Positions 2,412 through 32,214 of a stretch of 64,000 nucleotides of DNA are shown here, one piece after another (positions within the stretch are counted from its first letter, which is position 1; every line of letters starts with the position of its first letter). The stretch is from Chloroflexota bacterium (GTDB lineage: Bacteria > Chloroflexota > UBA11872 > UBA12225 > JAJDUF01). A program made the position numbers and the translations under genes. The stretch spans positions 101,000 to 164,999 of the forward strand of contig JAJDUF010000011.1 in the NCBI GenBank assembly GCA_022826725.1, read 5' to 3'. The notes under the pieces were generated by a model. It made no database searches and was not told the DNA's origin. It worked only from the letters and a program-made list of their open reading frames with translations.

Positions 2412-5400
2412 TCAGCTCAAGCGCAGGTCCAAAGCCACGTCAGCAACGCGCGTGAAGACAGTCTGGACAGAGATGGTGGTTGAAGAGTCACGTTCTCGCA
2501 TTACCGGTGCCAATCTGACATTGTTCTGAGCAATTATGCGGCGTTCGACCTCGCGGAGAAGGTCTTCGTCGAGCCCAACCGCCTCCGCGAGTAGCGATAC
2601 GAGCGCGGCTGCCCGGGAATCGGGAGTCGCCGGGTTCATGACTGCGTCCCGAACCATACCGGCGGCGACGGTATCGCTTCGCAGTCGATGGGGAACACGG
2701 CGTATGAAGGGGTCGTCGTAATACGTCTCACCAGCCCCGTCCAGCCAGTCGAGAGTGCGCTCAATCCGCTCGAAGATCTCGGAACTGTCGGCCGCCGCGA
2801 AGGCATCATCGAAGGAAGTTCGGGGTCGGAAAGGATGACCTGTAGGACACCGACTGCCTGCGATCAGCGCGGAGAGGGCCTCACGAGTGGGATCGCCACT
2901 ACTCACGGGAACGCCTCGCAGTGCATCATCCAAGCGGCCTAGTAGTTCTTCCTGCTGTAGACCGATCCGCTCGAATTGTGCGACGAGGACGCTGACAAGG
3001 CGCTCGCGTTGGTCGCCGCGGTACTGCAAGAGATGAGTAACGAGGGCATCGGTGATTGCGTCGGTGCTCGGACTATCTCCCGTGAACAGTCGAGTGACAC
3101 ACCACACCAAGACACCATTCAGCCCCAATAGACCGGGGTCGGCGGCGATTGCACTCTCAAGTTCCTGTTGAAGGGTGGTGTTTCGCCCAGCGACCAAGGC
3201 CAGCGCGTTCCAGACATCGCTCTTGGGCTCCTCTGCCCGGAGTCCAGAGAGCCGCGGAAGGAGCGTATCGCCGAACTCAGACCGCAGATCTTCCCAGCAC
3301 GAGGCGAGTTGTTGCAGCAGGGTCCCGTCCGGTCCGTGGAATGGATCGGCTAGGGAGACCCCAACGGGCAACGACTCACCGATCGTCTCCACACGGCCTT
3401 CCAACATCGACCAATCGCCGCACACGCACATGCCAACCCACGCACTGCGTCTCCGGGCTTCATGGTCCGGCCCGTAACACGATGCCTGTTTACCTAAGTA
3501 AACCAGGGCTCGATCCCATTGTTCATTATCAACGTGACCCTCCTCCCGCGCCCTAAGCAAAGCTCGATGATAAGCAAGGGAAGCGATGCTCTTATTGGGC
3601 TCGGACACCTCGTCTGCCCACCGACGGGTCAAATGCACCACGGCATCAGGTGCGATGGCCCCGTCTGCCAGCGACTGACACACCCTCGCGCGCAGGTACG
3701 CGGGTAGCGACCGGAGAATAGTCGATGCGTCTTCTAGGAATCGTTCAACCTGTTCAGGATCGTGACGGAACACGGGCAAGATTGGTTCGAGAGGGCGGTC
3801 TTCAGCCTCGGCGAGTTCAGCCAGCGCCGCCTTTGAGGCCGCGGAGGGATAGAAGGCGGCGGCGAGCATATAGCGGGGGTCACCGCCAAATGGATTGGGG
3901 CCACTTGGCATGAGTCCCAGCGCCTCTGCGGCGACCGATTCGATTTCCGGTGCGGGGCCGATCTCTTGTTCCTGGCAGGCTTCGAATATGGCGGAGGCAA
4001 GGATGTCGTAGCGCCCAGAACCGGGGTTCGCAGGTCCGGCGAGGTCGCGGAGGATCGCCAGCAGGCGAGGGATTACCTCGCCAGTGGCCAAGGCACTCGT
4101 TGCGACGTTCGCGACCATTGATGCCCGTACGGGATTACCCATCAGCACCGAGTGAAGTGCATCGCGGGCATCAGCATCTTCACCGAAGTAATCGACCAGC
4201 GCATCTGCGGACCAGTGAGGCCAGGGTGAAGTGGCGAGGTCCTCTAGCAGGGCTGTCTTCATCATTGGCCCACGATCGACTGCGGCGAGTCGCCACAACT
4301 CAGGACCATCGATTCTCTTTGTGAATGTGCGAAGGCGATCTTCAATCGCCGCTGCGACACGGCCATTGCGAGGTGATTCGGGAGGATATGCCAGCGCTAG
4401 CAACTGCCCGTTACCGAGTTTCACCCTCAGGCCTAGCGAGGAGTTTTCCTCGGACCGGAGCTGGTCGCACACGATATGCACAACCCGGTCGTCGTCACCC
4501 AGCAGGTTGAGCGCGACGGGCCAAATCAAGTCAGAGTTACGGTATGGTCCCGATGCGGACTGCAAGCTCTCGACCAAGTCTTCAAGAACTGAATGTTGAC
4601 CACGTACCGCTTCCGAGACCGCAGCGACGAGCAACTCAGGGTGAGTGTTCCCGAAACCAGGGTTCCGGAGGTGCTCAATCAGCCACTCGCGTTCGACATC
4701 GCTCAACTGCTGGATGTCGCTCGGGAGTTCTGTCGGAGAGTCGCAGAGCGTAGTTCGCAGCACGCCAAGCGCGTCGCTAAGGGCCACAATCCGGACACTT
4801 TCGTCTGCGTGCCCTCGTGCGTCGTTCAGGATATCTTCGACCAAGGGATCGTGCCGCCACTCAAGGGCCAGTGCCATCAGAGCAGCGGCCTGGGCGAGAC
4901 CAGAGGGAGGGTTGGATAGAATATGCAGCAGTTCCCTACGCAGTAGGTCGCGCTCCTTGTTGTTAACGGATCGACTGTTCGAGCATCTGCCGGCGATTGC
5001 CACCGCGCTTGCATCGGCAATCCAACCGTGTGGATGGAGCAGCGCCATCAAAAGCAGCTTGCAAGCGGTCTCTGACGGAGCCCCAACCTGTGTTATTTGA
5101 GCGATCTCCCGCACGAGTGTGCTGGATGGCTCTTGGACAAGCAGTGTCCAGCGCTCCAGGCAGTCCCGCACGATGTCTTCGGTCGCCGCTCCCTCCAAAC
5201 CCGCCAGAACGCTATCCAGAAGACGTGCGCGATGCGGTCCATACGGATGGGTTTCGATCACCTCGATAATGCCAGGAGCGCTCTTCTGGATGTCTCCGGC
5301 CGGAAGGTCGTATGGTCCAAATACCACTTCCGCAAGGATTTCACGTGCGCGTAGTCCTGTTGGGGTTTCGTCAACACGCCGCCGGATCGCCCCCATCAGG

Positions 5401-7643
5401 TCGCTCAACTCCGACGGGCGGCGAAGCCTCGACATCGTGGCGAGGAGCACTTCGCGCCATCGGGGGTCTCCGATGTGCTCTGCGAACAGTTCATTCATTG
5501 CCGCGGGAGTGAGTTGGTCTGAGATGTATTCGGCAGCGAGTTGCTCCTGTAGTATTCGATGGAGAAAGCCGAGTTCTGTCGCCCCCTTTCGGACGAGGAG
5601 TCCTAGCTCACCTTCTGCTACGTTCAGTAGCTGGTCGGCAGTTTCCGCCGCATCAGCCGCATTCATGGCGAGACGGGCGGGAGCACACAGCGCGTGGAGG
5701 AAGTCTTCGCGTAGTCTTGTCTCTTCGAGAGTCGAGATGTCGCCCCTAGCCTGGCTTACGAAGGCGACATTCGCGAGGACTGCTCTTAGTTGGCGAACTG
5801 ACAATCCCCGTCGCGGCGTCGTCACAGCTGCTGCTACGCGCCTGTTCGTGGGGTGGTCAGCGACAAGAAGCTGAACCGCTTGGTCATAGACTTCGAAGCG
5901 CTCCGCCGGCAGCGTGCCTACGCTCGATAAGCGCAGTCCCACTAGGAGCACCAGGAAGAGAGGGGTCCCACTGATTGCGCGGAGACCAGGCACATTACGG
6001 ATCTGTGACAGGAAATCGTCAATCGACCGCTCGACGGTGTCAGGCGATGATGGGCGATCTTCCGAATCGATGACCGCACGAAAGTAGTGGAGTGCGAGCA
6101 GGCGCTGCTGGTCCGGGTTCAGGGGTGCGATGCGTCGGTATGTCCAGCCGGCACCCAACGTGAGTTGGGACAGCCCGTAGGGCCGAGTCGAGACTACCAG
6201 CGGTGTTGACCGCGAGTCCGCAAAGGTTTTCAAAGCGGCGACTGCATACTGCCCCGCTTCGTCGCTGACCCACTCGTCGAGGCCGTCAACGACTAGGAGC
6301 AAGCGTTGATCGTTGAGCGCCGCTTTGACAAGAGGCCAGATCTGGCCGGCATCATGTTGTTCCAGCCATGCCTTGAGCGCCTCCCCAATGGACGCAGCTG
6401 CGCCCGTTTGGCCGGCGACCCGCTGCGTAAAGAAGTGGAATGGCAACCAGATAGGGAGATACTGCCCTAATCGTTCGGCGACAGTCCGCCACCTTGGTTC
6501 CCTGCTCAGCAGGTCAAGAACCAGGTGCCTGAGGAGGGTGCTCTTGCCGGCGCCTGGATCACCAACGATCACTTGTAAGGGTTCCACACCTATCCACTGA
6601 TCGGCCGGCCGACGATCCAACACGCGGGGGTTCTCCAGGTGACGGTGCCTCCGAGCCGCGTTCGGCGGAAACGACATCCCCTCGTCCCGTGTCAGCGGGG
6701 CCCACGCAGCTGCTTCCGCCATGGCTGCAAGTAAGTCGTGTCCGTCCGTATCTAGTTCATCCAGGTCGTCTTCAGGCTGTGGTAGGGGGGCGGCCTGCGG
6801 TGTTGTGGTCACCAGATCGGGTATCACGAACCGTTCTGGCAGTGCGACCGGGTGCGTCTCACTGAACCGGAATGCAATCATCCCAGAGTCAGCGACGCCA
6901 AACGACGCCGCGTAGATTCGGGCGAGTTCACAGCGGAGCTTGGCTACCTGCCCGGCATCAAGCCGACCGCCGAGCCGCGTAGCTGCCTCGTCGCCGCAGA
7001 ACTCCTTCACCCAATGCCGACCAAAGAAGTCATCGACCAGTTCTGGGTGGTTCTTTAGCCGCCTGGAGATCTCCTCCTGATCCCAGACCACATACTCAAT
7101 GGATCGTTGCAAAAGTTGTGCAGCTAGCTTCTCGATTTCATGCACCAGCTCGGTCGATCTAGTGGAAGCGCGTGTGGCATAAACGAATTTTCGCGATACC
7201 TTGGCCCATCGTCCTTCAAGAAACCTGTCGACGCTGGCGCTCAGCTCCGCCGTCGTCACTGTTGCGATTCGACGTGCCTGGAGGCACACGTACCTCCGCT
7301 GTGGGTGCGGCTTGCCAGGGACCAGCCTATCCCTCGCGAACAGATCAATTCCGAATTGGGCCTGGCCACGCCGACCGTACAGCCTCACGACCGGTGTGGT
7401 CGGCCGACCCGTTTGGTCCGCCGTCGAAGCATGGACGGGTTCTGCGTCTAGATCGAGAAGGCGGAGACAGAGACGCTCAAAATCCTCCCATGCAAGTTCA
7501 CCAACAGGAAGTAACGCGGATCGCGTTCTTATCGGTGGGGATACGCCCCCTCCAATCGGAGGTACGCGCAGCCATGATGGCACCGGCAACCATGTGGACG
7601 GCTGATCGGGATCGGCAGGAGGCACGCTTTTCCGCTCCCGCAC
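2412..7643 (-). CDS. NACHT/STAND NTPase with N-terminal restriction-endonuclease-like domain and helical-repeat C-terminus (Avs/NLR-like defence protein)
   Basis: WEDFERLC...YGRRGQAQFGIDL...LQAR; Walker A GDPGAGKS; Walker B LLVVDGLDE; GTPLFL; FLHRILQEQLAA; long helical tail. Confidence 0.8.
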   Translation of the reverse strand: MRERKSVPPADPDQPSTWLPVPSWLRVPPIGGGVSPPIRTRSALLPVGELAWEDFERLCLRLLDLDAEPVHASTADQTGRPTTPVVRLYGRRGQAQFGIDLFARDRLVPGKPHPQRRYVCLQARRIATVTTAELSASVDRFLEGRWAKVSRKFVYATRASTRSTELVHEIEKLAAQLLQRSIEYVVWDQEEISRRLKNHPELVDDFFGRHWVKEFCGDEAATRLGGRLDAGQVAKLRCELARIYAASFGVADSGMIAFRFSETHPVALPERFVIPDLVTTTPQAAPLPQPEDDLDELDTDGHDLLAAMAEAAAWAPLTRDEGMSFPPNAARRHRHLENPRVLDRRPADQWIGVEPLQVIVGDPGAGKSTLLRHLVLDLLSREPRWRTVAERLGQYLPIWLPFHFFTQRVAGQTGAAASIGEALKAWLEQHDAGQIWPLVKAALNDQRLLLVVDGLDEWVSDEAGQYAVAALKTFADSRSTPLVVSTRPYGLSQLTLGAGWTYRRIAPLNPDQQRLLALHYFRAVIDSEDRPSSPDTVERSIDDFLSQIRNVPGLRAISGTPLFLVLLVGLRLSSVGTLPAERFEVYDQAVQLLVADHPTNRRVAAAVTTPRRGLSVRQLRAVLANVAFVSQARGDISTLEETRLREDFLHALCAPARLAMNAADAAETADQLLNVAEGELGLLVRKGATELGFLHRILQEQLAAEYISDQLTPAAMNELFAEHIGDPRWREVLLATMSRLRRPSELSDLMGAIRRRVDETPTGLRAREILAEVVFGPYDLPAGDIQKSAPGIIEVIETHPYGPHRARLLDSVLAGLEGAATEDIVRDCLERWTLLVQEPSSTLVREIAQITQVGAPSETACKLLLMALLHPHGWIADASAVAIAGRCSNSRSVNNKERDLLRRELLHILSNPPSGLAQAAALMALALEWRHDPLVEDILNDARGHADESVRIVALSDALGVLRTTLCDSPTELPSDIQQLSDVEREWLIEHLRNPGFGNTHPELLVAAVSEAVRGQHSVLEDLVESLQSASGPYRNSDLIWPVALNLLGDDDRVVHIVCDQLRSEENSSLGLRVKLGNGQLLALAYPPESPRNGRVAAAIEDRLRTFTKRIDGPELWRLAAVDRGPMMKTALLEDLATSPWPHWSADALVDYFGEDADARDALHSVLMGNPVRASMVANVATSALATGEVIPRLLAILRDLAGPANPGSGRYDILASAIFEACQEQEIGPAPEIESVAAEALGLMPSGPNPFGGDPRYMLAAAFYPSAASKAALAELAEAEDRPLEPILPVFRHDPEQVERFLEDASTILRSLPAYLRARVCQSLADGAIAPDAVVHLTRRWADEVSEPNKSIASLAYHRALLRAREEGHVDNEQWDRALVYLGKQASCYGPDHEARRRSAWVGMCVCGDWSMLEGRVETIGESLPVGVSLADPFHGPDGTLLQQLASCWEDLRSEFGDTLLPRLSGLRAEEPKSDVWNALALVAGRNTTLQQELESAIAADPGLLGLNGVLVWCVTRLFTGDSPSTDAITDALVTHLLQYRGDQRERLVSVLVAQFERIGLQQEELLGRLDDALRGVPVSSGDPTREALSALIAGSRCPTGHPFRPRTSFDDAFAAADSSEIFERIERTLDWLDGAGETYYDDPFIRRVPHRLRSDTVAAGMVRDAVMNPATPDSRAAALVSLLAEAVGLDEDLLREVERRIIAQNNVRLAPVMRERDSSTTISVQTVFTRVADVALDLRLS

Positions 7644-8267
7644 TTCGTTCGTCGTTGGCTCGGACTTTGTTCTGACGTGGAATCCCCGGCTTGAGCCTAG
7701 CGTCCTGGGTGGCCCAAGCCACCATGCGAAGGGTACTTGAGGCCCCTATTGTATCACCGAAGCTCCGACAACTGTCATGCCCGCGATTGCCGGGGTGTCC
7801 GTCGTCCTGACGGAGTAGGTTGCCGGGTCGAAGTGTGCAATTGCAGTCCGCAGTGCCGACCATTGGATCCATGGAGCTTAAGTCTCTACAGCTTCCACAG
7901 GCGGGTCCTCGTGATACCGTCCGGAATGGACCACCCATAGGACCTACGTGGGAGGGCACGCGCGACCTCCCTTAAAAGGCCTGGTCAGCGCGGTGGTGTT
8001 ACCGCTGTAATGGACGTGTACAGGAATCGGTACTTGGGACCCCCTGGCCGCGTGGTGGGTCATAGACCCCCGCTACCAGAGAGGAAATGGGGGCACCGGC
8101 GGGGCGCGTGGCTCCATTCCAGCAAGCACCTGGGTAGTAGGGCTGGTTCCAAGGCGGTGGCTACAAACTTCCCTGGGAGCGGCCAACGGTGGCTACGACG
8201 CGGCCGGGGGGTGGTGGCCAACTGCCCCAGGGAAGCGCGGCCCTACCGGATGGCGGCCGGTGCGTAG

Positions 8268-9068
8268 ATGAGCGAGGAGCACAGCATGGAGACCCAGACC
8301 CCCAGTCTGGAGAGCGTGCTGGAACTGCGGCTGCTGGTGCTGCTGCACGACCTAGTGCGGCAAGAGGGGCGGTCGGGAGCGGCCGCCGTGTTGGGGGTGC
8401 ATCGCAAGACGGTGGCCGCGGCGGTCAAGACCGGCCGGTTGTCGCGGCGGATGCAGGACGCGCTGGGGAGACACCTGCTGGCAGGGCAGGCCGCCGACGC
8501 TGCGACCGAAAGCGCGGCGGAGGCCCGTCGGCCGTGGGAGCAGCACGTGGCAGCCGCGCTGCGGCGCCAGCGGGAGGAACTCTTGGCGGCCATCAGCGCG
8601 CAGGGCCAGCACGTGCGGGACGAAGCTGCACAGCGCACCCACGCCTTGGAGCAACGGTTGGTAGCGCTGGAGTCCCACCGGCAGGAGGGCGGTAAGGCGG
8701 CACCGCTGGGGCAGCACACGCAGGACGGGCAGCAGGTCGTCACCGCGGCACCGGCACCGGGGGAAGCAGCGGCATTTGGCGCGGCGGCCCCACTCATTGT
8801 CCAGTGGCGGCAGGCACGGGAGGCGCGGGGCGGGGCGGGAGACCCCCTGACCGCACTGCACACGGAGGTGCGGCTGCGGGAGCTGGAGCTGGCCCTGATC
8901 GGGGCCTACCACCTGACCCTGCCACCGGCGACGTATCCCTGGGACGCCCTCACCCGGCGGACCGAGGTGGACTGGCGCCGGCGGACCTTGGCGCGGGTGC
9001 GCGGCGAGCGCCGCCGGGCGGCGTGGCGACGCCGCCTGCGCCGGGTGCTCACGCTGGGATTGGCGTGA
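8268..9068 (+). CDS. Hypothetical protein with N-terminal HTH-like segment and coiled coil
   Basis: GRSGAAAVLGVHRKTVAAAV HTH-like motif; strong GC3 bias. Confidence 0.65.
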   Translation: MSEEHSMETQTPSLESVLELRLLVLLHDLVRQEGRSGAAAVLGVHRKTVAAAVKTGRLSRRMQDALGRHLLAGQAADAATESAAEARRPWEQHVAAALRRQREELLAAISAQGQHVRDEAAQRTHALEQRLVALESHRQEGGKAAPLGQHTQDGQQVVTAAPAPGEAAAFGAAAPLIVQWRQAREARGGAGDPLTALHTEVRLRELELALIGAYHLTLPPATYPWDALTRRTEVDWRRRTLARVRGERRRAAWRRRLRRVLTLGLA

Positions 9069-9722
9069 GCCGCATTGCAGCCGCATGGTTGCCCCATGCG
9101 CGCAAGCACTTGGCGCGGGGAGGCCGAAACCCCTTGTCACCGGTGCGCGGGAGCCGGAATACTGAGCGTATTGTCAGGCTTTGCCAGGTCTTCCCGCCTT
9201 AGAAACCTGGGGGTCCGGCCCTAGACCCGGGCGAGACCGCAGGGATCGAGCCTTGCTCTCCCCACGGTCCCCATGAGGGCACCGCTGCGCTGGCGGAGGA
9301 AGTAGATCCTGCGCCGGCAGTCCAATCCAGGGTGTGGCGTGCAACCGGCACGGTGCTCCTGGGGCCCGAAGGTCGGCGTGCGTCCGGCGCGCTGACCACC
9401 CGTTGCCGCCGGCCGCTGGTCTCGGACCGCACCACGACGCCGGGTGCCGATTTCCCAGCGTGCTCCCGGCGGTGCCGCTCACAATCCTCAGGCTCGGTGC
9501 AGTATCCACGGCCCGGCACCGTGGCACACCGGCTCCACTCCCCCACCACGACCTTGGTCGCACGGCAGCCACCCCGCTCGTGCATTGGCCGGGGTGCCCC
9601 TACCCACCGCGTCCCACGGATAGGCATCCGACCGTGGATAGCGCGGGTCCCGCACCAGCCGCTCCCGTCAGCAGTCCCCGTGCGCCAGATGTCCGCACGG
9701 ACCAGCCGAGAGGAGGTAGCAC

Positions 9723-9770
9723 ATGGACAGCAGCAGGCAAGGACACAAAGGAGGTGCAAGATGGTGGTAG
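9723..9770 (+). CDS. Putative 15-aa leader peptide MDSSRQGHKGGARWW overlapping the primase start
   Basis: AGGAGG at 9711-9716, ATG 9723, TAG 9768-9770; covers primase RBS and ATG 9761. Confidence 0.4.
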   Translation: MDSSRQGHKGGARWW

Positions 9771-10819
9771 CCCAGCACTACATAGACTTGGCGGCGCTCA
9801 AGCACCGGCACCCGTTGGCCGAGGTGGTGACGGCCGCCGGCGTGCAACTGCGAGGCCGGGGCCGCGTCCGCCAGGGTCTGTGCCCCTTCCACGACGAGAC
9901 CGCCGGCAGCTTCACGGTGTACGGCGACACCGCCCGCTTCCATTGCTTCGGCTGTGGTGCCAGCGGTGACGTGCTGGACTTCGTGCAGCGCGTGGAAGGG
10001 CTGACCCTGCCCCAGGCCATCCGGCGGCTGGACGGGGAGACCGGGAGAGGTCGCCAGGCTGGCGTCCGGTCAGCAACGGCCGTGACCCCACGTGGGTCCC
10101 GCACGACCCCGCTACCCCCGCGAGACCCGGCCCTGCTGACGGCCGCGGCACGGTACTACCACCGGGCGCTGTGGCGGTACCCCCAGGGTCGGGCGTACCT
10201 GGTCACGCGCGGTATCAGCGCGGCCACGGCCAAGCGGCTGGGGCTGGGCTATGCCCCAGGACGCGGGCTGCGTCGGGACCTGGCGGCTGCCGGCTTCGCC
10301 GCGGCGCGGCAGCGGGCTTCGGGACTGTTCGTCGGGCGGGGCGCCGAGCGGTTCGCCGGCATGGTGGTGGTGCCGGCAGTGCGCGACCGCCAAGTGCAGT
10401 GGCTGGCGGGGCGGGCCATCATGCCGGAACGGACCCCGCGGTTCCAGACGCTGCCCGGCCCCAAGCCGCTGCTAGGGCTAGGCCTCCTGGGTGCGGCGCC
10501 GCGGCAGGTGGTGCTGACCGAGGGGCTGTTCGACTGGCTCACGCTGGTCGAGTGGGGTCTGCCGGCGGCGGCCGTGCTGGGCACCCAGGGCCTGGAACGG
10601 GTGGCCGCCGCCCTACAGTCCTGTCCCCGCGTGGTGCTGGCCTTCGACGCCGACGACGCCGGCCGGACCGCGGCGACGCAACTGACCGAATTGCTGGGAC
10701 GGCGGGCCACCAGCGTCACCCTCCCGCCAGGGATTACGGACGTGGCCGACCTGGCCACCCGGCCGGCCGGTCGCGCGGAGTTCCGCCGCCTGTTGGCCCC
10801 AGCGCCGCCATCGCGGTAG
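9761..10819 (+). CDS. DNA primase (CHC2 zinc finger + Toprim)
   Basis: CPFHDE...FHCFGCG zinc finger; LTEGLFD and FDADDAG Toprim motifs; GGAGG RBS before ATG 9761. Confidence 0.9.
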   Translation: MVVAQHYIDLAALKHRHPLAEVVTAAGVQLRGRGRVRQGLCPFHDETAGSFTVYGDTARFHCFGCGASGDVLDFVQRVEGLTLPQAIRRLDGETGRGRQAGVRSATAVTPRGSRTTPLPPRDPALLTAAARYYHRALWRYPQGRAYLVTRGISAATAKRLGLGYAPGRGLRRDLAAAGFAAARQRASGLFVGRGAERFAGMVVVPAVRDRQVQWLAGRAIMPERTPRFQTLPGPKPLLGLGLLGAAPRQVVLTEGLFDWLTLVEWGLPAAAVLGTQGLERVAAALQSCPRVVLAFDADDAGRTAATQLTELLGRRATSVTLPPGITDVADLATRPAGRAEFRRLLAPAPPSR

Positions 10820-11175
10820 CCGGCGATCCCCCGCCGGCCCCCAGCAGCGCCGCAGTGCGCGGCACCACATCACCGGGACCCTCCCCGGAGCCGACTTGGT
10901 CGCCACCCCGGCGAGCCACGAACGCGCCCCCTCGTTGCCCCGCACCGCCGCCAACGGCGGACGCTCCCGCGTCCCACCGCCGCGCGCGCCGGCTCCCCCC
11001 AGTTCCTGCCCCTTCGGCCCACCGGGCCGCTCCCCCAGGGGTCAGCGCCGCGGCCGCTGGCCGCGCGCGATCCCCGCTCCGGCAGGGGTGGCCCGGCCCT
11101 GGGCCGCCCCGCGCGCACGCCAGCACACAGATGCCCACCCAGGACCGACAACGCAGTAAGGAAAGGAGAGCCCCG

Positions 11176-11934
11176 ATGTCCAACGCCACGCACAGTAACG
11201 CAACCCGGAACGGTGTCCCCGCCGCGCCCGCTGACCTGGTACCCCTGGCGCCTACCGCCGGAACGCCAGCCGATCACCAAGCGGCCGGTCTCGCTGCCGC
11301 CGTCATGCAGCAACTGGATGCACCGCTAGACCCCAGCCTCGTCGCCCAGCGGAAGGGCCGCGCCGGGCACACCTTCCCCTATCTCCCCGGCCGGGTCGCC
11401 ATCGCGCAGGCCAACCGCCTGCTCGGCTACGGCGGCTGGGGCTACGACCTCGTGGGTGAGGTCACCTCGCGGGACATCACCACCCGCGATGCCCAGACCG
11501 GCACGGTCGAGCACGCCACCGCCTACACCGCCACCGTCCGGCTGCACGTGCCGGGCGTACCGCCGCGCACCGACGTGGGCTTCCGGGTGGTGGCGGAGGA
11601 GAGCGCCCAGGGGCACGAGACGGCCTACAAGGGGGCCGTCACCGACGCGCTCAAACGGGCCCTCCGCACCCTCGGCGCGCAGTTCGGCAACGACCTCGGC
11701 AGCGACGGTGGCACCGCCGCCACCGACACTTGGGCCGCATCGTTGCGCCAGACGCTGCTGGCCCTGGGCGCCCAGCAGGGCTTCGACGCAGCGCAGCTCC
11801 GCACGGCGGTGCGGCGGCGGCTGGGGCAGGACCTGGACGCCGTGCCCGCCGCCAAGTTGCTGCCCTTGGTCACCGCTGCCGCCCAGAAAGTGCCGCCGGC
11901 CAGCCCGGCTGAAAGGAGTGCGCCAGCGAGTTGA
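11176..11934 (+). CDS. Rad52/Rad22-family single-strand annealing protein (Sak-like)
   Basis: QRKGRAG..FPYL...ANRLLGYGGWGY; AYKGAVTDALKRALRTLG..FGNDL; AAGGAG RBS. Confidence 0.88.
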   Translation: MSNATHSNATRNGVPAAPADLVPLAPTAGTPADHQAAGLAAAVMQQLDAPLDPSLVAQRKGRAGHTFPYLPGRVAIAQANRLLGYGGWGYDLVGEVTSRDITTRDAQTGTVEHATAYTATVRLHVPGVPPRTDVGFRVVAEESAQGHETAYKGAVTDALKRALRTLGAQFGNDLGSDGGTAATDTWAASLRQTLLALGAQQGFDAAQLRTAVRRRLGQDLDAVPAAKLLPLVTAAAQKVPPASPAERSAPAS

Positions 11935-11969
11935 ACAGCGCCCAGCGAATCGTCTTCAGGGTCCAGCCG

Positions 11970-12008
11970 GCGGGGTCGCTTCCCTAGGGGGCGGCCCCGC
12001 TTTCGTTT
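11970..12008 (+). terminator. Putative intrinsic terminator/hairpin
   Basis: GCGGGGTCGC...GCGGCCCCGC stem followed by TTTCGTTT. Confidence 0.5.
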
Positions 12009-12037
12009 CCCACCACACCGTCGGAAAGGAGCGTGCG

Positions 12038-12559
12038 ATGACCGCCACTACCTACGAACCACCCACCGCGTCCCTGCTGACCGCGCTGCGCCAAAACCTG
12101 CAGGTGCTGGGCGAGTTGGCCCTCCGCTACGAGGTCGACACCCAGCCCTCCAGTGCCGCCGCCGACTGTCCCGCGATCACCGGCCCCGCCGACGTGCAGC
12201 AGCTGGTGGGGCCGGAGCTGGCCCCGCTGGTGCAGGAGCAACTGCGGGTGCTGCTGCTCAACACCAAGCACCGCGTCATCGGCCAGCGGGTGATCTACCA
12301 GGGCACCGTCGACGCGGCGGGCATCCGCGCCGCCGAGGTCTTCCGCCCGGCCATCATCGCGGCCGCCCCGGCCCTCATCGTCGTCCACAACCATCCGAGC
12401 GGCGATCCCACGCCGAGCCCCGCGGACGTGGCCGTCACCAAGGAGCTGGCCGCCGCCGCAAAGCTCCTGGATATCGAGCTGCTCGACCACGTCGTCATTG
12501 GTAGCGACCGGGCCGTGAGCTTGCGCGAGCAGGGCCGGCTGCCCAGCGCCGGCCCGTGA
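12038..12559 (+). CDS. radC: RadC-like JAB/MPN domain protein
   Basis: QEQLRVLLLN...HNHPSGDPTPSPAD...LLDHVVIG. Confidence 0.9.
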   Translation: MTATTYEPPTASLLTALRQNLQVLGELALRYEVDTQPSSAAADCPAITGPADVQQLVGPELAPLVQEQLRVLLLNTKHRVIGQRVIYQGTVDAAGIRAAEVFRPAIIAAAPALIVVHNHPSGDPTPSPADVAVTKELAAAAKLLDIELLDHVVIGSDRAVSLREQGRLPSAGP

Positions 12560-12586
12560 GGTACCCCAGCCAACAAGGAAAGGAGT

Positions 12587-13291
12587 ATGGACATGACCAG
12601 TAGCACGCCCCCCACCGCGCCGACCACCACCCCCGACCCCGCCACGCGGTACACGATCACCGCCGGCGGCTTCACCGCCACCGCCGATGCCTTCGCCCGC
12701 GACCCGGCTACCGAGAGCCTCTGGTTCCTCTCCCTGGTCGGTGCCCAGACCGCCCTCAAGGCCATCTGGGCCGCTCTGCTCAAGCAGCCCCCGGCCGCCG
12801 CGTACCTCCTCCCCGGCGCCGAGGGCACGGCGCTCGCCGGCGGCTTCCAGCATTGTGTCATTCCCGCCCACACCGTCGGCACCTGGACCACCAAGCTCAC
12901 CCGCCTGCCGGTCTGCGGTGGTTGGCACGCCCTCGTCTACACCACGCTCGCCGAGTACGCCACGGAGCGCGAGCAGTTCCTGCTGCTGGCCCCGGACGCA
13001 ACGCAGGCCCCTGCGCTGCATCACCGCTTCCTGGACCGGCGCAGTCCGCTGCCCTTGCACCACTCCTGGGCGCCCTGGCTCTGGCAACGGGGTCTGGCCC
13101 AGGACGAGATCACCCCGCTGCAAACCACCGGCCTCGTCGCCTATGACTGCCGGCCCGATGCCGCGGCCCTGAAAGCCGACCTCGCCGCAGCCGTCGCCGC
13201 CGGCACGCTCACCCTGGATGAGGCGGCAGCGGCACCCGCACCGAGTAATCCGACCACCAACGAGGAGAAAGGAGATTCACCATGCGTCTAG
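12587..13291 (+). CDS. Hypothetical backbone protein of the element
   Basis: AAGGAG RBS, strong codon bias, overlaps the methyltransferase start. Confidence 0.7.
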   Translation: MDMTSSTPPTAPTTTPDPATRYTITAGGFTATADAFARDPATESLWFLSLVGAQTALKAIWAALLKQPPAAAYLLPGAEGTALAGGFQHCVIPAHTVGTWTTKLTRLPVCGGWHALVYTTLAEYATEREQFLLLAPDATQAPALHHRFLDRRSPLPLHHSWAPWLWQRGLAQDEITPLQTTGLVAYDCRPDAAALKADLAAAVAAGTLTLDEAAAAPAPSNPTTNEEKGDSPCV

Positions 13292-14999
13292 CAGCCCAGG
13301 CCAAAGGCGGCTTCTATCCCACCCCACCGCGCGTGCTCGATCTGCTCGCCACCCTGCTGCGCCCCCCGCCCCGCCTGCCCGCTGGCGCGCCCGGCACCGT
13401 CCGCCTACTCGACCCCTGCTGCGGCGCCGGGGCCGCCCTGGCCCAACTCGCTATCCGCCTGGACCCGTACAGCGCACTGCCCCTCAAGACCTACGGCGTG
13501 GAGTTGCACCAGGAGCGCTCCGCGCAGGCCACCGCCTGCCTGGACCACACCCTGGCCACCGACCTCTTCGCCGCCGCCATCGCCAACCGCGCCTTCGGCC
13601 TGCTGCTCCTCAATCCCCCCTATGACCGTGCGCCGCGTCACGCAGCATAGGATCCCCGGCCTAGCCGGGAGGAACTCGGAGCCTGTTCCTGGGCCAACCG
13701 ACCCACCTCAAAGCGAAAGCGGCGGGGGACCATAGCCTGTCGGTAAAGCGGCTACAGCCTGAAAGCGATGTAAGGCTGGTTCCGCAAGGCCCGCGCGATA
13801 CGGTGAAAGCTTGACTGCCTGAACCCCAGTCCCCAGCTGGTGATCGGGAGCACCCGCCGGTAGCACGCTTGTATCCCGGCGCCACGTCGTGCCCTGGCCG
13901 GTGGTCGTGACCAGGGTAACTCCGCGACGTGGACGATGACCGATGCGGTCTATTCAAGGGGGCGAACGGGGCACCTACAGTCGCGCTCGAAACGTCCTAT
14001 GCTGACGGAACGCGGGATTGCCTACGGGGGGCGACCCCTAGGGCAACGGAGTCCTCGTAGTAGTCGGCGCCGGGGAAAGCCCGGTACATGGCGAAGGAGG
14101 ACAGGTGATCGACTCGCGCGCTGTGCGGTGTCCGAGCGGGCACAGGCCAAAGCAGCGCCGCGGTCAGCCCAGCAGCCCGTACCGGCTGGCTGGGTATGGA
14201 TCACTGGAGAGCCGGGTGCGGTGAAAGCCGCACGCCCGGTTCGGGAAGGGGGGGACGGAAAAGTGGTTTGGCGTCAGCCAAACCAACTCGCCGGCCTTCT
14301 ACTTCACACGACGGGGAAGAACGGCGCAGCGAGCACCGCTTCCTACGCCACTGCACCCGCTACCTGGCCGAGCACGGTGTCCTGGTCTTTATCGTCCCCC
14401 GTCAGCGCCTACCGGTCTCCGCCCGCTTCCTCGCCGCCCACTACCGGCGTCTGGCCTGCTGGGCCTTCCCCGACCCGGAGCGCGCCGCCTTCGACCAGGT
14501 CGTGCTCATCGGCTGCCGGCGCGCCCGGCCCCAGCCCGACCCGGCCGCCGAGCAGCAGCTCCACCGCTGGGCGACGGAAGAGCTGCGGGCGCTCACCCCA
14601 GCCCCCGCACCGCTCTACACCGTCCCAGCCACCCCGGCTGGCGACCTGCTGTTCCGCACCCGCACCGTCGATCCCCTGGCCGCGGCGGCCGAAGCCCGGC
14701 GCACGGGGCTGTGGACCCACGCCACCATCACCGACGCGCTCTGGCCGCCACAGGCGCCCCGGCCCCGGCCGCTGCTGCCGCTGCGCCGCGGGCATCTGGC
14801 CATGCTGGTGGCCGCCGGCTTCCTGGACAACCTCTGCCTGGAGGCCAACGGGCAGCGCCTGCTGGTGAAGGGGCGCACGGCCAAGGAGTTGGTGCTGGTC
14901 ACCCGCACCCGCGAACAGGAAGTGCGGCGCGAGCGGCTGCACACCACCGTCGTGGCCCTCGACCTCGCCACCGGCACCATCACCGACATCGCCGCCTAA
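13282..14999 (+). CDS. Class I SAM-dependent DNA amino-methyltransferase (DUF6094-like), interrupted by a group II intron; exons 13282-13627 and 14308-14999, 345 aa spliced
   Basis: FYPTP, LDPCCGAG (motif I), YGVEL, LLNPPY (motif IV); removing 13628-14307 restores the frame NPPYD-H-DGEERRSEHRFL. Confidence 0.88.
13628..14307 (+). mobile_element. ORF-less group II intron (IIB-like), 680 nt
   Basis: 5' GTGCG; domain V GAGCCGGGTGCGGTGAAAGCCGCACGCCCGGTTC (14209-14242); domain VI ends CTACTTCAC; domain IV only ~105 nt; EBS1 GGTCGT (13903-13908) pairs with exon ATGACC. Confidence 0.93.
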
Positions 15000-15182
15000 C
15001 CTGAGCACCTCCTGTCGGCCCGGTCGCACCACACCCACGCGGCCTCGCCAGTCCCCCCAAGGGACCGGCGGGGCCGCGTCTGTTTTCCGGCCCCGGCGCT
15101 CCCGGCCACCGGTTTCCCGGCCCACCGCGTATTGCCCCCCCCTACCGACTCACCGCCACCCCACGAATGAAAGGAGAGCCGC

Positions 15183-17495
15183 ATGAACCTGAGCACGTTC
15201 CTCGACACCTACAAGGAGGCCATCGCCCAGCGCGTCGTCGCGTCCTACCCACCCCGGTACCACCCCGCCGCGGACGACCGGCCGCTGCCGCCGTTGCTGC
15301 GGAGCCCGCTGGGCGCCCAGGAGACCGCCATTCGCGGCACCGCCCACTCGCTCGCCAGCCAGCGGGGCACCACCGTCGTCGGCGAAATGGGTACCGGCAA
15401 GACCTTCATCGCCACCGCCGCCGCGCACTTGGCCGGCTTTCAACGCATCCTCGTGCTCGTCCCACCCCACCTCACCAGGAAGTGGCAGCGGGAAGTCGAG
15501 GCGACCATCCCGGACGCCCGCGCCGCCATCGTCACCTCCATCACCGCCCTGGAACGCCTGCGCCAGGCCGGCGGCCCCGGCCCGCTCTTCGCCATCCTCT
15601 CCCGCGAGCGTGCCAAGCTCTCCTACCGCTGGCAACCCGCCGTCGTGCAACGCTGGGCCACCGGCGACGGGCGGTTGCTCCGGGACGAGGACACCGGCGA
15701 GCCGTTCCGCGTCCCGACGTGCCCCGTCTGTGCGGCCCAGGTGGTCACCCCGGACGGCGTGCCGCTGACGGACGCGGAGCTGGCGCGGCGCAAGCGCACC
15801 TGTGCCGACTGTGGCGCCGCCCTCTGGCAGGCCGACCGCGCCGGCCCCCGCCGCTATCCGCTGGCCGACTACGTCAAGCAGCGCCTGAACGGCTGGTTCG
15901 ACCTGCTGATCGCCGACGAAGTCCACGAGTACAAGGGCCGCGGCAGTGCCCAGGGGATTGCCGCCGGTATTCTGGCCGACGTCTGCGGTACCTCCCTGGC
16001 GCTCACCGGCACGCTGGCCGGCGGCTACGCCAGCACCCTCTTCCACCTGCTCTACCGCTTCAGCCCGGCCCTACGCGCGGAGTTCGAACACCACGAAGAG
16101 GCGCGTTGGATCGCCCGCTACGGCTTTGTCGAGCACAGCGTGCGCCGGCCGGCCGACGAGGCCCTGGAGGACGGCCGCCACAGCCGGCGGCGGCGCTATC
16201 GCACCGTGATCCGCGAACGCCCCGGCCTGGCGCCGGCCGCGCTGTTCCACCTGATCGGCCACACCGTCTTCCTGCGCTTGGCGGACGTGGCCAGCGGGTT
16301 GCCGTCCTACACCGAGCAGGTGCGTCTGGTGGGCCTGGCCGAGACACCGGACGAGACGGGGTACTCGCAGCAGAGCGCCTACCAGGCCGTGTTTACCACC
16401 CTGCGCAAGGCGTTGGCGGATGCGCTGGCGCACGGCTCCAAGCGGCTACTGGGCGCCTACCTGCAAACCCTGCTGGCCTACCCCGACGGCTGCACCCGCG
16501 GCGAGACGGTCTTCGATCCGCAGAGCGCCCAGCCGCTGGTACAGGTCCCGCCCCTGGCGGAAGACCGCGTGTATCCCAAGGAGCAGGCGCTGCTGGACCT
16601 GGTGACGGCGGAACGGGAAGCCGGACGCCGGGTGCTGGTCTACGTCACCCACACCGGCACGCGGGACATCACGGGCCGCCTCGCGACCTTGCTCGCCCAG
16701 CACGGCAGCCGGGTAGCGGTGCTGAAGGCCGATGCCGTCAAGCCCGACCGCCGCGAGGCGTGGGTGGCCGAGCGCGTCCAGGCAGGCCTGGACGTACTGG
16801 TGTGTCATCCCCGGCTGGTGCAGACCGGCTTGGACCTGATCGACTTTGCGACCGTATGCTGGTACGAGACGGACTACTCGGTCTACACCTTGCGACAGGC
16901 CTCCCGCCGGTCGTGGCGGATCGGCCAGACGCGGCCGGTGCAGGTGGTCTACCTGGCCTACCGGCAGACGCTCCAGGCCGACGCGCTGACGCTGGTGGCG
17001 AAGAAGCTCCAGTCGTCCCTGGCGGTGGAGGGGGAACTGCCGGAGGACGGGTTGGCGGCCTATGGCGACGACGGCGACGACCTGCTGCTGGCGCTGGCCC
17101 GCCAGATCGTCAGCGGGGAGGCGCCGGCCGAGCCGGTGGAAACGGTGTTCGCCCAGGCGCAGGCCGCCGCGGCCGACGCCGAGCAGTTGCTGGTGGACGA
17201 GGGGTGGCAGCCGGTGGTCGATCCTGAGCCGGCGGTCGTCGTCGCTCCGGCCAACGGGGTGAACGGGACGGGCCAACACCCCGATGGCCAGGGAGCCGCC
17301 CCGGTCAACGGCCAGGGGCTGGACGCCGCCGCCCCGGCGCCGCAGCAAGAGGAACTGTTCTCGTGGGCGGAGTTCCTGGCGCAGGTCCCGGCCCGGCCCC
17401 AGCGCCGGCGCAAACAGCCGGCCGCGTCCTTGCCGCTCTTCGAGTGGCTACAGGCCCAGGAGCGGGAGGCAGCGTTGGTCGGCCACTCCGCCTAG
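15183..17495 (+). CDS. SF2 (SNF2-like) helicase with zinc-ribbon insertion
   Basis: GEMGTGKT, CPVC/CADC, IADEVH, LTGT, TGLDL, QASRRSWRIGQ. Confidence 0.88.
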   Translation: MNLSTFLDTYKEAIAQRVVASYPPRYHPAADDRPLPPLLRSPLGAQETAIRGTAHSLASQRGTTVVGEMGTGKTFIATAAAHLAGFQRILVLVPPHLTRKWQREVEATIPDARAAIVTSITALERLRQAGGPGPLFAILSRERAKLSYRWQPAVVQRWATGDGRLLRDEDTGEPFRVPTCPVCAAQVVTPDGVPLTDAELARRKRTCADCGAALWQADRAGPRRYPLADYVKQRLNGWFDLLIADEVHEYKGRGSAQGIAAGILADVCGTSLALTGTLAGGYASTLFHLLYRFSPALRAEFEHHEEARWIARYGFVEHSVRRPADEALEDGRHSRRRRYRTVIRERPGLAPAALFHLIGHTVFLRLADVASGLPSYTEQVRLVGLAETPDETGYSQQSAYQAVFTTLRKALADALAHGSKRLLGAYLQTLLAYPDGCTRGETVFDPQSAQPLVQVPPLAEDRVYPKEQALLDLVTAEREAGRRVLVYVTHTGTRDITGRLATLLAQHGSRVAVLKADAVKPDRREAWVAERVQAGLDVLVCHPRLVQTGLDLIDFATVCWYETDYSVYTLRQASRRSWRIGQTRPVQVVYLAYRQTLQADALTLVAKKLQSSLAVEGELPEDGLAAYGDDGDDLLLALARQIVSGEAPAEPVETVFAQAQAAAADAEQLLVDEGWQPVVDPEPAVVVAPANGVNGTGQHPDGQGAAPVNGQGLDAAAPAPQQEELFSWAEFLAQVPARPQRRRKQPAASLPLFEWLQAQEREAALVGHSA

Positions 17496-17530
17496 CTCAA
17501 GCTAGCGCGGGACACTGACCGCTGTAGCAC

Positions 17531-17565
17531 GGGGAGGCCATCGCATTGGTAGCGGTGGCCTCTCC
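17531..17565. terminator. Stem-loop after the helicase, between convergent operons
   Basis: GGGGAGGCCATCGC / GCGGTGGCCTCTCC inverted repeat. Confidence 0.5.
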
Positions 17566-17687
17566 GGCTTATCCATGTATGCGCGATTCTGCCTTCCACG
17601 TCGCACTACTTGGGGTAGCCCATCCCGAGCTGCCATATGTACGTACCTTTTCTTGTTACATCCTCTGGAGCTGACAGTGGACCACGC

Positions 17688-17880: not shown

Positions 17881-20800
17881 CTACTCGTTCTGCGACAACA
17901 CGCTCGCCGGATGCCTTATAACTTCGAACGGACTTACCGCGTCAATCTTGCAGCCCCTAAACCGCTGCGCCGCTTCCATCGCGACTGTCCGGTAGATGGG
18001 ATGGTCATCGGTCCAGAGGGGATGGCGCACGATGCTCACCCGGTTGAATCCCTTGTGCTTGTAGACCTGAAGGCAGTCAATTTCCGCCGCCTCTCCGTAT
18101 CCAAGATTTTCCAACAACACGGGAACAGGCGCATTACTGCCTCTGCAAAGTGACTGCCACGGATTGTCTTGCAGTCCCCAGGAAGAAGTAAGGTCTAGGA
18201 CAGCGTTGGGGGCTAGTGCTAACCGGGCCATCTCGGCAGACAGGCGCCAGTCCAACAGACCGTGATAGGACAGGTTGTAGAAGTCGCGCAAACACCGGTT
18301 GCACGAGGTGTCACACTCTTCACCGTGTGGTCCGCCGGCCCATATTTTGACAAGGCTCCCAGTTTTTCCGACATCACCCTCGCGCAGCAGCCTTTCGAAG
18401 TTCTCGGGTTGCCCAAGCCACCAGCAGTAACCAGCGCCATTCTGGAGCGTGTCCGATAGGAACGCCTGGCCTACCACGCGCTCGCCCCGTTCGCGGAACG
18501 GGCGGAATCCGGCATTGAACTCCAGCGTATCCACGTCCATCAGTGCGGCGGCCGAACTACGCAGGAAGAACGCAAACGAGTACCACGCCGCACGCCCAAC
18601 TGCACTCAAGGGATCGGCGAACACCCCCACGGGCCAGCTCTGAAGGCCGGTCAGCAACACGTCAGTCTTCCTGCGGGACAATAGCGCTATCTTACGCACC
18701 TCTCCCGATACAGAAACGCGACTATTTCTCCCTGGTCCAGGATCGACTGCGTAGGCTTCACTCCACTCTTGACGACCAGAGATACTAGCCCTTTGGAACT
18801 CGAATCCTCCTTGACCACCGTTGTCATTCACTGAAAGAATGTCCCCGGAGAAAGCAGATACGCCGCAGTTGCCAAGATGTTGCTCATTGGCCTCTCCGCT
18901 ATCCCAGGCAAGTGTTGGAACTGTAGAACTTGGAGTCCATTCGAATACTCCGTGATAGTCCTCTGGCGTGAAGTCGGTAAAGAACCCCTTGGGTTCTCGC
19001 GCGTCAAGAGGAGGATCAACCTGTGGGAGGTTGCAAACCTGGCAGGAATAACCCTCGGTCCCGCTCACAACGAATTGCACACTCTGGCAGTCGGGGCACA
19101 TGTGAAGAGAGGTTGGATTGGCCCCCGGAAGAGGAGGCACGAATCCAGAATCGGTACACACTCGATTTCCCCGGGGATAGAACTCCGTCACGCCACATGC
19201 GTTGTGGAGCGTCTTGTCCTTCACCGTCTGAGAACCTGGAGCAAATTGGCTGATTGCTATAGACAGGTCGCGATCTATAGTCCCATGCTCGGGAGGCCAG
19301 GGGCTGGCACGGCGGGGAACGTCAGTGTAAAGCAGACGAGAGTCCGTAGGAAACCCAAACATGGGCAGCAGACCCGCGTGCGCCAATCGCTCACTGAGGG
19401 CCTCCTGATGATAGCTTGCACCGTTCGCGATGCTGGAAATCTCATCGATGAGGGGACCCTTGGCGTATGCAATCATCTTTCTACAGAACGTGTCACCGTC
19501 GCCATTGGCCCATATGGTGCCTAGGCGCAAGGCGTCAAGGACTGCCTGGATAGTGCCTTCGTTGCGCGGAGAGTTCAACCAATCTCTGATCTCCTCGACT
19601 CGATTCGCCCAATCTGCCACCGGACCGAACTCTCCGTGGACACTGTCCCGGAATCTATCACCACCTCCTGCACCAAGCTGGACGAAGGCTAGCCGCAGTA
19701 GCTCCTTCACGAAGACGCGCTTGAGAATCGTATCGCTGGTGACGTCCACATAGGGTGCAGGCGGCGGATCACCAGTAATCTGCTCTGGCCGCTGGTAGTA
19801 GTAGTCGTCGTGGCTGCGTCCACGGCAGAATGTCACCGCCAGAGAAACACCAGCGCCGCGGCGTCCAGCCCGCCCCACCCGCTGCTGGTAGTTGAAACGC
19901 CGCGGCGGCATATTGGCCATCATCACCGCTTCCAGATCTCCGATGTCAACACCCGCCTCCATCGTGGTAGTAACGCTCAACAGGTCCACTCCGTCAACTC
20001 GTTCCGAGTTCTGCTCCTCTCCTATAAATACTTCCTGGAACCAACGCTGGCGCCTGTGTCGGTCGCCGTCGTCGGTCTGTCCAGTCAACTCTTCACAGTG
20101 CAGACGGAATCCTGGGCCGGACTCCTCGGCTAGATAAACGTAGTAGTCGAAGCTCTCGCGGGTGGTACCGGGCTCAAGTTCTACATCGGTGCAGTCCGGG
20201 CAAACAGATATCCGGCCAGTGCGATGGAGGTAGAAGGCGCTGCATCTCGGGCAACGCCACCCCTTGCACTGACCCTGCGTGTTCTTTTGGGGACCCTTTA
20301 TGATGTAAAGGTCTGTGGGTGATATTCCGAGCGTGTTTCCATCTAGAGTCCCCACGTTCGAGTTCCGCAATGTGGCTATTAATTGCTCTTTCGAAATGCT
20401 AGCGGCATCCAGAAAGCTGCGGATATTACGTGGCAAGTCAACCCCCGCTTGTGGGATCGCATCTCCACCAAAGAAATGTGCCTGGCCAGGATAGCGTCTT
20501 CTCACCCCCATCTGTCGAATTATCGATTCGACGGCGTTTACTACACCGTCGTCTGTTTCTTCAGGAGGCTTGAAGGTTGCCCACCCAGCACCAAGACTCT
20601 CCAGTGTTCTTGTCGCGTGTTGAAAAAGCGTGAACATCAACTCACTGGTTAGTGAATCATCTATCATCCCCAGCAGTCGCCGCGCTTGGGGTGGCAGTTG
20701 CGACTTCTCTTTAGGAGTACTTTCTGTCCAAGTATAGCATTCATGCCAACTGTAAGTAATTCCGTCCACCAAGTACTCGGATAGCTTGTGGGAGTTTCCT

Positions 20801-23565: not shown

Positions 23566-23568
23566 GGT

Positions 23569-26996: not shown

Positions 26997-30143
<3,147 letters not shown>

Positions 30144-30224
30144 GGCATCCGTCCTGCCCTGGACATGACAAGCTCATTCCAATTGGGCAGTTGGCTCTTT
30201 CGCCGTGGCCCTATGTAGTCGTTG

Positions 30225-30871: not shown

Positions 30872-30954
30872 AGTAGCCTCCCGTTGACAGTCGCCGATGG
30901 CGCCGCGTGTAACGGCTCCATACCAGTATACCGGGGGTTCGTTAGCGGGTGGGT

Positions 30955-31578: not shown

Positions 31579-31581
31579 AGC

Positions 31582-31974: not shown

Positions 31975-32027
31975 TGCCTCCTAGTCTATTGGCAAACGTC
32001 ATCCAGTACCGCTGCGGGCCGGCTGCG

Positions 32028-32185: not shown

Positions 32186-32214
32186 CAACTATCGTCCATC
32201 TACCATACCTTGTG

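Follow-up and report, generated by a model that had tools for sequence, protein, structure and literature searches.

An ORF-less group II intron without a resident maturase in the methyltransferase gene of a Chloroflexota mobile element

In bacteria, group II introns nearly always occur as retroelements which carry a protein of their own. Ll.LtrB, which encodes the protein LtrA, is located in the relaxase gene of a conjugative element of Lactococcus. Here, a 680-nt group II intron without an open reading frame (ORF) is described, which interrupts a DNA methyltransferase gene of an integrative element in a Chloroflexota bacterium. It was found in a stretch of 64,000 nucleotides (assembly GCA_022826725.1, contig JAJDUF010000011.1, positions 101,000 to 164,999, forward strand), which is referred to as the window. 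As in the case of Ll.LtrB, a conserved gene of a mobile element is interrupted and the relatives of the intron encode an LtrA-like protein with reverse transcriptase (RT), X and HNH domains, whereas the intron of the window itself has no ORF.

ORF-less introns are rare in bacteria and, according to a 2015 review, nearly always share their genome with a gene for a related intron-encoded protein (IEP) (PMC4424553). In the account given there, C.te.I1 of Clostridium tetani is the only bacterial ORF-less intron known whose genome has no IEP-related gene (PMC4424553). The intron of the window is similar to C.te.I1 in that it is ORF-less, interrupts a protein-coding gene and has no IEP gene elsewhere, here judged from a draft genome and from the single-contig genome of a congener. 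It differs from C.te.I1, as the review presents it, in that alternative splicing is not suggested and in that a signature of recent lateral spread is visible.

The ORF-less TeI3 introns of Thermosynechococcus elongatus can be driven in trans by ORF-bearing relatives (Mohr et al., 2010; PMC2882425). A single deletion followed by spread through retrohoming, as described there, is also the history which is proposed below. According to the same paper, T. elongatus encodes the drivers in the same genome, the ends of the ORF are visible as remnants and the DIVa region is retained (PMC2882425), whereas the intron of the window has no driver that could be found in its host, no visible ORF remnant and no similarity to DIVa. 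Furthermore, compact ORF-less introns of about 600 nt have been published from mobile DNA, for which mobility through the RT of another intron was proposed. They are alike in size and in the lack of an ORF, but the example described for them has an RT-encoding intron in the same phage genome, and a methyltransferase host gene is not mentioned (the word does not occur). The intron of the window is a new example of a known, rare kind, the bacterial ORF-less intron without a resident maturase, and not a new mechanism. It is the second candidate beside C.te.I1 for an ORF-less intron in a genome without an IEP gene.

The intron and its split methyltransferase gene

Positions 13628–14307 of the window (forward strand, as all intron and exon features named in this section) are a complete 680-nt group II intron without an ORF, which was delimited by an Rfam match, by its fold, by a consensus with its relatives and by the empty site in paralogous genes. 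The Rfam model of domains V and VI (RF00029) matched positions 14207–14307 with 64.3 bits (gathering score 40), and this is the single match in the window as well as in the entire assembly (4.14 Mb, 23 contigs). The intron starts with GTGCG at 13628 and ends with AC at 14306–14307. A minimum free energy (MFE) fold showed a six-domain layout (z = −3.98 against 20 shuffles), in which domain I (DI) extends from 13633 to 14015, domain II (DII), a short hairpin with a GCGA loop, from 14018 to 14046, and domain III (DIII) from 14051 to 14102, each agreeing with the consensus. Domain IV (DIV, 14104–14205) has a length of 102 nt. It contains neither an ORF nor a recognisable remnant of one, as judged by tblastn and by local alignment to the intron of its closest ORF-bearing relative (genome G426). 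The 34-nt domain V (DV, 14209–14242), placed by the RF00029 alignment, carries an AGC triad at 14210–14212 and a GAAA loop, and domain VI (DVI, 14245–14305) has in the fold a bulged A at 14301, 7 nt before the 3′ splice site. A first-pass annotation, made from the sequence of the window alone, had described a complete ribozyme with a DIV of about 105 nt and no RT in the window. This description was borne out, including the lack of any PF00078 (RT) match in the window.

The structure is conserved in the related introns described below. In an RNAalifold consensus of DI to DIII from 12 introns, 74 of the 107 pairs show compensatory double changes. The intron of the window forms 104 of the 107 pairs, compared with 104 and 105 in ORF-bearing relatives, where it should be noted that the consensus includes this intron as well as a near-identical copy from a congener and leans towards both. 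In addition, the basal stem of DIV (GGTGATC/GATCACT) covaries with GGTGTCA/TGACACT in a relative from genome G014, and both stems of DVI covary with two introns of the same genome.

The exon-binding site EBS1 (GGTCGT, 13903–13908) is located in the loop of the hairpin 13892–13916 and pairs over 6 bp, one of them a G-U, with the intron-binding site IBS1 (ATGACC, 13622–13627), which forms the final six bases of exon 1. This pairing, already proposed in the first pass, covaries in the intron of contig G014:C96, in which the aligned loop reads GTGAAT and the exon ends with GTTCAC. Among the relatives the loop is hypervariable and its stem is kept. In three further relatives the pairing is incomplete (5 of 6 or 6 of 7 positions), as read by eye. 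In LtrA-type (IIA) introns, a delta–delta′ pair beside EBS1 replaces the EBS3 of IIB introns. At the candidate delta position, T13902 can pair with A14308; in G014:C96 the aligned U faces a C and cannot pair. Since the best of the Rfam D1–D4 class models (D1D4-1, 14022–14099) reached 16.1 bits against a cut-off of 35, no class was assigned from these models.

The interrupted gene consists of exon 1 (13282–13627), which comprises 115 codons plus one nucleotide and ends with the codons for NPPYD followed by C, and of exon 2 (14308–14999), which includes the stop codon. The Pfam profile DUF6094 (PF19587), an uncharacterised methyltransferase family, was matched across both exons (exon 1: E = 2e-14, profile positions 128–228; exon 2: E = 9e-11, profile positions 236–343), and the NPPY motif is present. 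By this family profile, the product is classified as a putative DUF6094 DNA methyltransferase of the N6-adenine type. Scans with defence-system models and NCBIfam added no methyltransferase name beyond a weak mad2 match.

The intron interrupts the gene in phase 1, immediately behind the codons for NPPYD. Without splicing, the reading frame (ORF 13282–13650) ends at a TAG at 13648–13650. The in-silico join of 13627 and 14308 yields 1038 nt, which are 345 codons and a stop. Both the early stop and the exact 345-aa frame are as the first-pass annotation had stated. In a search with exon 2, 850 of 8000 candidate proteins scored at E ≤ 0.001, and exon 2 is 93% identical to uninterrupted homologues of 345 aa. 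The junction of the spliced product (NPPYD-HDGEERRSEH) shows no indel in comparison with uninterrupted homologues (35 of the 120 listed homologues aligned), and 27 of the 30 best homologues run continuously through it. For an analysis of conservation, the 107 proteins of 340–350 aa among the best 120 of the 850 were used. At the 140 columns which are conserved in at least 95% of these full-length homologues, there were no deviations in the product of the window or in that of the congener G005. Precise removal of the intron thus restores a 345-aa frame with every highly conserved residue of the family, and the claim that both exons are intact was confirmed in this way. Between the two genomes, the ratio of nonsynonymous to synonymous divergence (dN/dS) of the exons is 0.17 at a synonymous divergence of 0.32.

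Two uninterrupted paralogues of the gene were identified in the same genome, on the contigs C3 (5657–6691) and C14 (8336–9370). When the window was aligned by blastn with an intron-free paralogue, the match was interrupted exactly at 13627 and continued from 14307 (ambiguity of 1 nt). In other genomes, five intact copies of the methyltransferase gene are present in G001, whereas no copy was found in G008, G002 and G004.

Recent spread and lineage of the intron

The same intron at the same site was found in the congener G005, whose genome is assembled in a single contig of 4.28 Mb. There, the split methyltransferase gene is the only copy and the intron accounts for the one RF00029 match in total. 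The two introns are identical at 673 of 682 aligned positions (98.7%), in comparison with 88.2% identity for exon 1, 89.2% for exon 2, 84–85% for the flanking genes and 53% for the downstream spacer, so that its divergence amounts to about one tenth of that of the exons. All nine differences lie outside the consensus pairs of DI to DIII or in DIV. The DIVs of the two copies differ at three sites, from which it follows that both copies would descend from one ORF deletion. A near-identical intron in diverged exons and flanks points to a recent lateral spread of the ORF-less form. The identity ends at position +14 of exon 2, where a whole codon differs, and this end fits a precise insertion better than homologous exchange. 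This tenfold gap in divergence suggests that ORF-less introns can keep spreading among element copies after the loss of their gene.

The codon at +14 (window 14321–14323) is CGG (Arg) in the window, whereas G005 has AAA (Lys) there and the two paralogues have AAG (Lys), which is a two- or three-base change right beside a very young intron. Co-conversion of the flanks was considered, as the window copy (C20) and G005 are identical from −70 to +13, but other causes suffice. It is not claimed, because the region from −70 to −20 is nearly invariant in all four copies and the remainder is the target site of the intron.

A third allele, known as protein only and from one contig (P0121/P0005), matches G005 at 111 of 122 residues in the exon 1 ORF and at 216 of 229 in exon 2, and it carries the same intron-derived read-through peptides. 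Contigs of the runs X2 and X3 also contain the intron-bearing form. Their difference counts match the G005 type, and they are consequently not independent evidence.

Introns at the same site were also traced through homologous methyltransferases, a survey which the first-pass annotation had suggested. Of the 120 top-ranking short homologues found for the exon 1 ORF, 14 end with NPPYD[RCS]APR[HNR]AA or with ...APLNAVWNP. Judged from their sequence, these tails are the predicted read-through translation of the 5′ terminus of the intron after the same codon, in alleles which are 52–89% identical. Four further ones of the 120 (P0135, P0175, P0176, P0228) end with ...FLT[HQ][CS]APR[NYH]A[AP], which points to another site, 15 codons downstream of NPPYD, at which introns of this family insert. 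All 18 tail-bearing homologues are known from their protein sequence alone. A methyltransferase homologue is present in 30 of 401 sampled genomes of the phylum, and among the matches listed from this sample a gene split at the NPPYD site was found only in the genome of the window.

At the DNA level, 7 of 61 related genomes and 12 of all 98 genomes of the class gave a match to the intron, and the relatives of the same class are 67–84% identical in DI to DIII. Using the exact DV pattern on one genome per GTDB species, 13 loci were obtained in Chloroflexota, Planctomycetota and Actinomycetota, 11 of which have a coding sequence similar to the intron protein. The exceptions are the G005 copy and a locus of Planctomycetales (L054). 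Genes of the element were found beside the G005 locus only.

The intron protein of G014:C96 has a length of 642 aa and contains the domains RVT_1 (PF00078) and Intron_maturas2 (PF01348) as well as an AI2M-like HNH domain (PF21368). It matches LtrA of Ll.LtrB with E = 4.9e-113 over residues 24–584 (561 residues), while other solved intron RTs match in the RT part only (about E = 1e-33 to 1e-38). The intron of G426 is 84% identical to that of the window over intron positions 1–480 and encodes a match of 596 residues to the G014:C96 protein. The intron of the window, being without an ORF, encodes no LtrA-type protein itself. As its relatives do, we infer that it descends from an LtrA-type (mitochondrial-like) lineage which encodes an RT/maturase/HNH protein. 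The RNA subclass, taken solely from the protein of the relatives, would be IIA.

The family appears to have settled repeatedly in the genes of this element. In genome G372, two ORF-bearing relatives interrupt the helicase gene of the element after the codons for ...SLMGG and ...YLQTL, and a third, truncated copy about 10 kb away follows the Walker A codons (...GEMGAGKSF); all three share the codon phase of the intron of the window. We infer from these sites that the lineage colonised codons of conserved motifs of the element, namely the methyltransferase motifs NPPYD and FLTH-C and the helicase motifs Walker A, LxGG and YLQTL. Landing in the codons of catalytic motifs in the genes of one element shows how introns ride on integrative elements. 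In the G372 locus (L080, G372:C4:122000-141500), the match to the helicase breaks off at residue 432 and is taken up again at 562, which may mean that the gene is damaged.

Some further members of the family were observed. L054 3032–3693, from a metagenome-assembled genome of Planctomycetales (CAVVZJ010000001.1), is another ORF-less relative, in which DIII and DV are separated by only about 70 nt; it forms just 85 of the 107 consensus pairs and may be decaying. In G014:C153 (L015, near 1103), a related intron lies right after the RYADD codons of the RT of another intron, a nested, twintron-like arrangement. Pattern scans of JGI metagenome contigs with the DIV/DV junction or the NPPYD+GTGCG junction found nothing, and the same holds for a pattern scan of IMG/VR. 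In the literature, no such intron turned up for group II introns together with a methyltransferase gene or Chloroflexi, nor anything relevant on DUF6094.

Possible splicing in the absence of a maturase

The first-pass annotation had considered self-splicing or a maturase supplied in trans and had proposed to look for a related RT-encoding intron in the genome. Such an intron was not found in the assembly of the window (G000): PF00078, PF01348 and PF08388 gave no match, the best hit of a tblastn search with the G014 intron protein had E = 2.1, and a second copy of the intron is missing. G005 likewise has no PF00078 or PF08388 match. It contains one ORF of 97 aa, which resembles the X/maturase domain of LtrA-type proteins (PF01348, 25.9 bits) and lies in an intergenic position, flanked by unrelated genes and without intron RNA in its vicinity (L065 4095–4388, reverse strand; G005:C1 about 1958594–1958887). 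This ORF is probably a fossil, and a maturase in trans finds no support in either assembly. Thus, by these profile searches, G000 and G005 both appear to be genomes without an IEP-related gene, the situation described for C.te.I1. Among plasmid records, 207 have distant matches, none of which spans 80% of the intron. Two other genomes of the genus, assembled in one and two contigs, contain solo pieces, namely DV/DVI in G001 (L006 1506–1575) and DV only in G008 (L007 1492–1538). Upstream intron domains were not found for either piece, and neither genome has an RT. By their sequence, both pieces are remnants of introns lost in the genus.

The following history is proposed. The ORF would have been deleted once from an ORF-bearing intron of the LtrA lineage. 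Not long ago, the form without the ORF would have inserted precisely into diverged alleles of the methyltransferase gene. Retrohoming is the most likely route, with the protein of a relative as the driver, in an earlier host cell which had one; the present hosts have none. In the pre-mRNA, the intron would fold, EBS1 and possibly delta would hold the exons, the bulged A14301 would attack the bond 13627|13628, and the exons would be ligated at 14307|14308. The methyltransferase of the window copy would accordingly be made only via self-splicing, protein-independent or assisted by the host, which is the weakest step. In favour of splicing, no decay of the ribozyme structure was seen, and the sole gene copy of G005 still contains the intron. 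The account as a whole, that is an intact ribozyme of this lineage, its recent spread and its splicing without a maturase in the present hosts, seems probable by a modest measure; within it, splicing at a useful level in vivo appears evenly balanced between yes and no.

Several observations weigh against this account. For introns of the LtrA type, splicing at physiological Mg2+ is normally dependent on the maturase, as known from Ll.LtrB. Intact exons are a poor indication of splicing in the case of so young an intron, and with two intact paralogues the window copy need not work in this genome. Hand estimates made without a tree and derived from pairwise values give a dN on the branch of the window copy about three times that of C3, C14 and G005, and a branch omega of about 0.24 compared with about 0.07–0.14. 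The best candidate for EBS2 (GGGA, 13846–13849) pairs over 4 bp only with UCCC at −14 to −11; at the aligned place in G014 and G426, pairings of 5 bp are formed. The C14 paralogue has the identical IBS1 and +1 base, yet its site is empty. DIVa is the region in which LtrA-type intron proteins bind, and the DIV of the window intron shows no similarity to this region of its relatives, so that mobility driven by a helper becomes less straightforward. Finally, the draft assembly is 96.7% complete, and plasmids of G000 or G005 may be missing.

Much of this would also be expected if the intron were a dead end, unspliced in hosts without a maturase, with the methyltransferase copy as a fresh pseudogene which is tolerated through the two intact paralogues. 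The missing RT and maturase, the loss of a DIVa-like region, the uninformative exons of a young insertion and the raised dN on the branch of the window copy all fit such a fate, and the genus does hold intron fossils, namely the solo DV/DVI pieces of G001 and G008 and the X-domain scrap of G005. A decaying ribozyme is not what was found, however, since 104 of 107 pairs are formed and the nine differences to G005 avoid the consensus pairs of DI to DIII or lie in DIV. In G005, the split gene has no intact paralogue to cover for it and still keeps 140 of 140 conserved columns. Furthermore, C.te.I1, ORF-less and without an IEP gene in its genome, self-splices in vitro according to the review (PMC4424553). 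A dead end is a serious but doubtful alternative.

A more far-reaching form of the proposed account would be an intron which needs no maturase at all: compact, without an ORF or DIVa, splicing alone or with a host factor, keeping the sole methyltransferase gene of the element working in RT-free genomes and still moved precisely into diverged alleles. Judged from the sequences, this appears unlikely. If true, it would be a second, independent case like C.te.I1 and a natural intermediate from a retroelement to a splicing-only intron.

A maturase could also come from elsewhere in the cell, for example from the unassembled part of about 3%, a plasmid or an unbinned second element, as in the case of the ORF-less introns of Thermosynechococcus. 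Repeats are often missing from draft assemblies and repeated introns often fail to assemble. Here, C3 and C14 begin inside element copies, genomes of the same order and class carry related introns with intact proteins, and the recent spread itself needed a helper at some time. Against this stand the single-contig chromosome of G005 with its one DV match and no RT, and the likewise RT-free genomes of G001 and G008, so that a hidden helper is regarded as quite improbable. Least probable is an old, vertically inherited intron of the age of the allele divergence, kept near-invariant by strong selection on its RNA, for which the shared site in both genomes and the conserved core helices of the family would speak: the loops and DIV of an old ribozyme would differ far more than at the few sites observed against an exon synonymous divergence of 0.32 and a spacer identity of 53%, and the 67–84% identity of same-class relatives shows that the ribozyme evolves faster.

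A skip of 680 nt in contigs and two forms with a replaced junction were considered as signs of splicing and rejected, as they match intron-free alleles of the C3 and C14 type. Two of the runs with such contigs are recorded as DNA ('DNA?') and two are of unrecorded kind.

The consequence drawn in the first pass, that production of the methyltransferase depends on splicing, holds for this copy of the gene, which needs removal of the intron. It does not extend to the genome, since two uninterrupted copies are present and splicing is not necessarily required for methylation in this cell. The further idea that methylation is thereby made conditional was not supported: with a divergence about one tenth that of its exons, and as a member of a family which lands in conserved motifs of element genes, the intron resembles a selfish insertion of recent date and not a control device. 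The paralogues undercut conditional methylation for the genome of the window and not for G005, because the latter has only the split copy. If splicing takes place, methylation of the element in genomes of the G005 type would depend on an RNA-only step.

Under the proposed account, the intron is a candidate for maturase-independent splicing in a bacterium. It is also of value for the clear difference in divergence that separates it from its host gene, and for belonging to a family of introns linked to a single family of elements. The case is tractable, as it offers a 680-nt ribozyme, an exact and easily assayed junction (TATGACC|ACGACGG), a chromosome-level host with the split gene as its only copy and ORF-bearing relatives as possible helpers.

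The element and its genomic surroundings

The methyltransferase gene belongs to a conserved module (7950–17583, forward strand), identified by blastn against C3 and C14 and by Pfam, which consists of a hypothetical gene, a primase gene, a Rad52-like gene, a RadC gene, a second hypothetical gene, the methyltransferase gene and the gene of an SNF2-type helicase. The module is present in three diverged copies in this genome and shows 82–87% nucleotide identity (blastn) to the copies on C3 and C14. A large serine recombinase (281–1858, reverse strand; Pfam Resolvase, Recombinase and Zn_ribbon_recom) is the likely integrase of the element. It adjoins a ribbon-helix-helix (RHH) gene (1851–2333), of which positions 1975–2312 recur at the beginning of both C3 and C14 (blastn).

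Between the recombinase and RHH genes and the conserved module lies a gene for a NACHT/STAND NTPase of 1743 aa (2412–7643, reverse strand), with a third-position GC content of 0.63 compared with 0.85–0.92. It is regarded as variable cargo, because the corresponding place is empty in the C3 copy and occupied by other DNA in the C14 copy.

Directly beside the element, a 1894-aa protein encoded at 17881–24888 (reverse strand) matches Druantia DruE models from end to end (PADLOC, up to 1569 bits), and its neighbouring gene has a weak DruL match, so that this looks like a Druantia-type defence locus. A defence island follows at 27000–37551 and 42340–43512 (both reverse strand). It comprises the type I restriction genes hsdR (27000–30143) and hsdM (35896–37551) together with an hsdS fused to a nucleotidyltransferase domain (33854–35617), a ThsB-like TIR gene (31585–31974) beside a gene for an 8xMP membrane protein (31069–31578), and a gene for a GmrSD-type endonuclease (42340–43512), all on the reverse strand.

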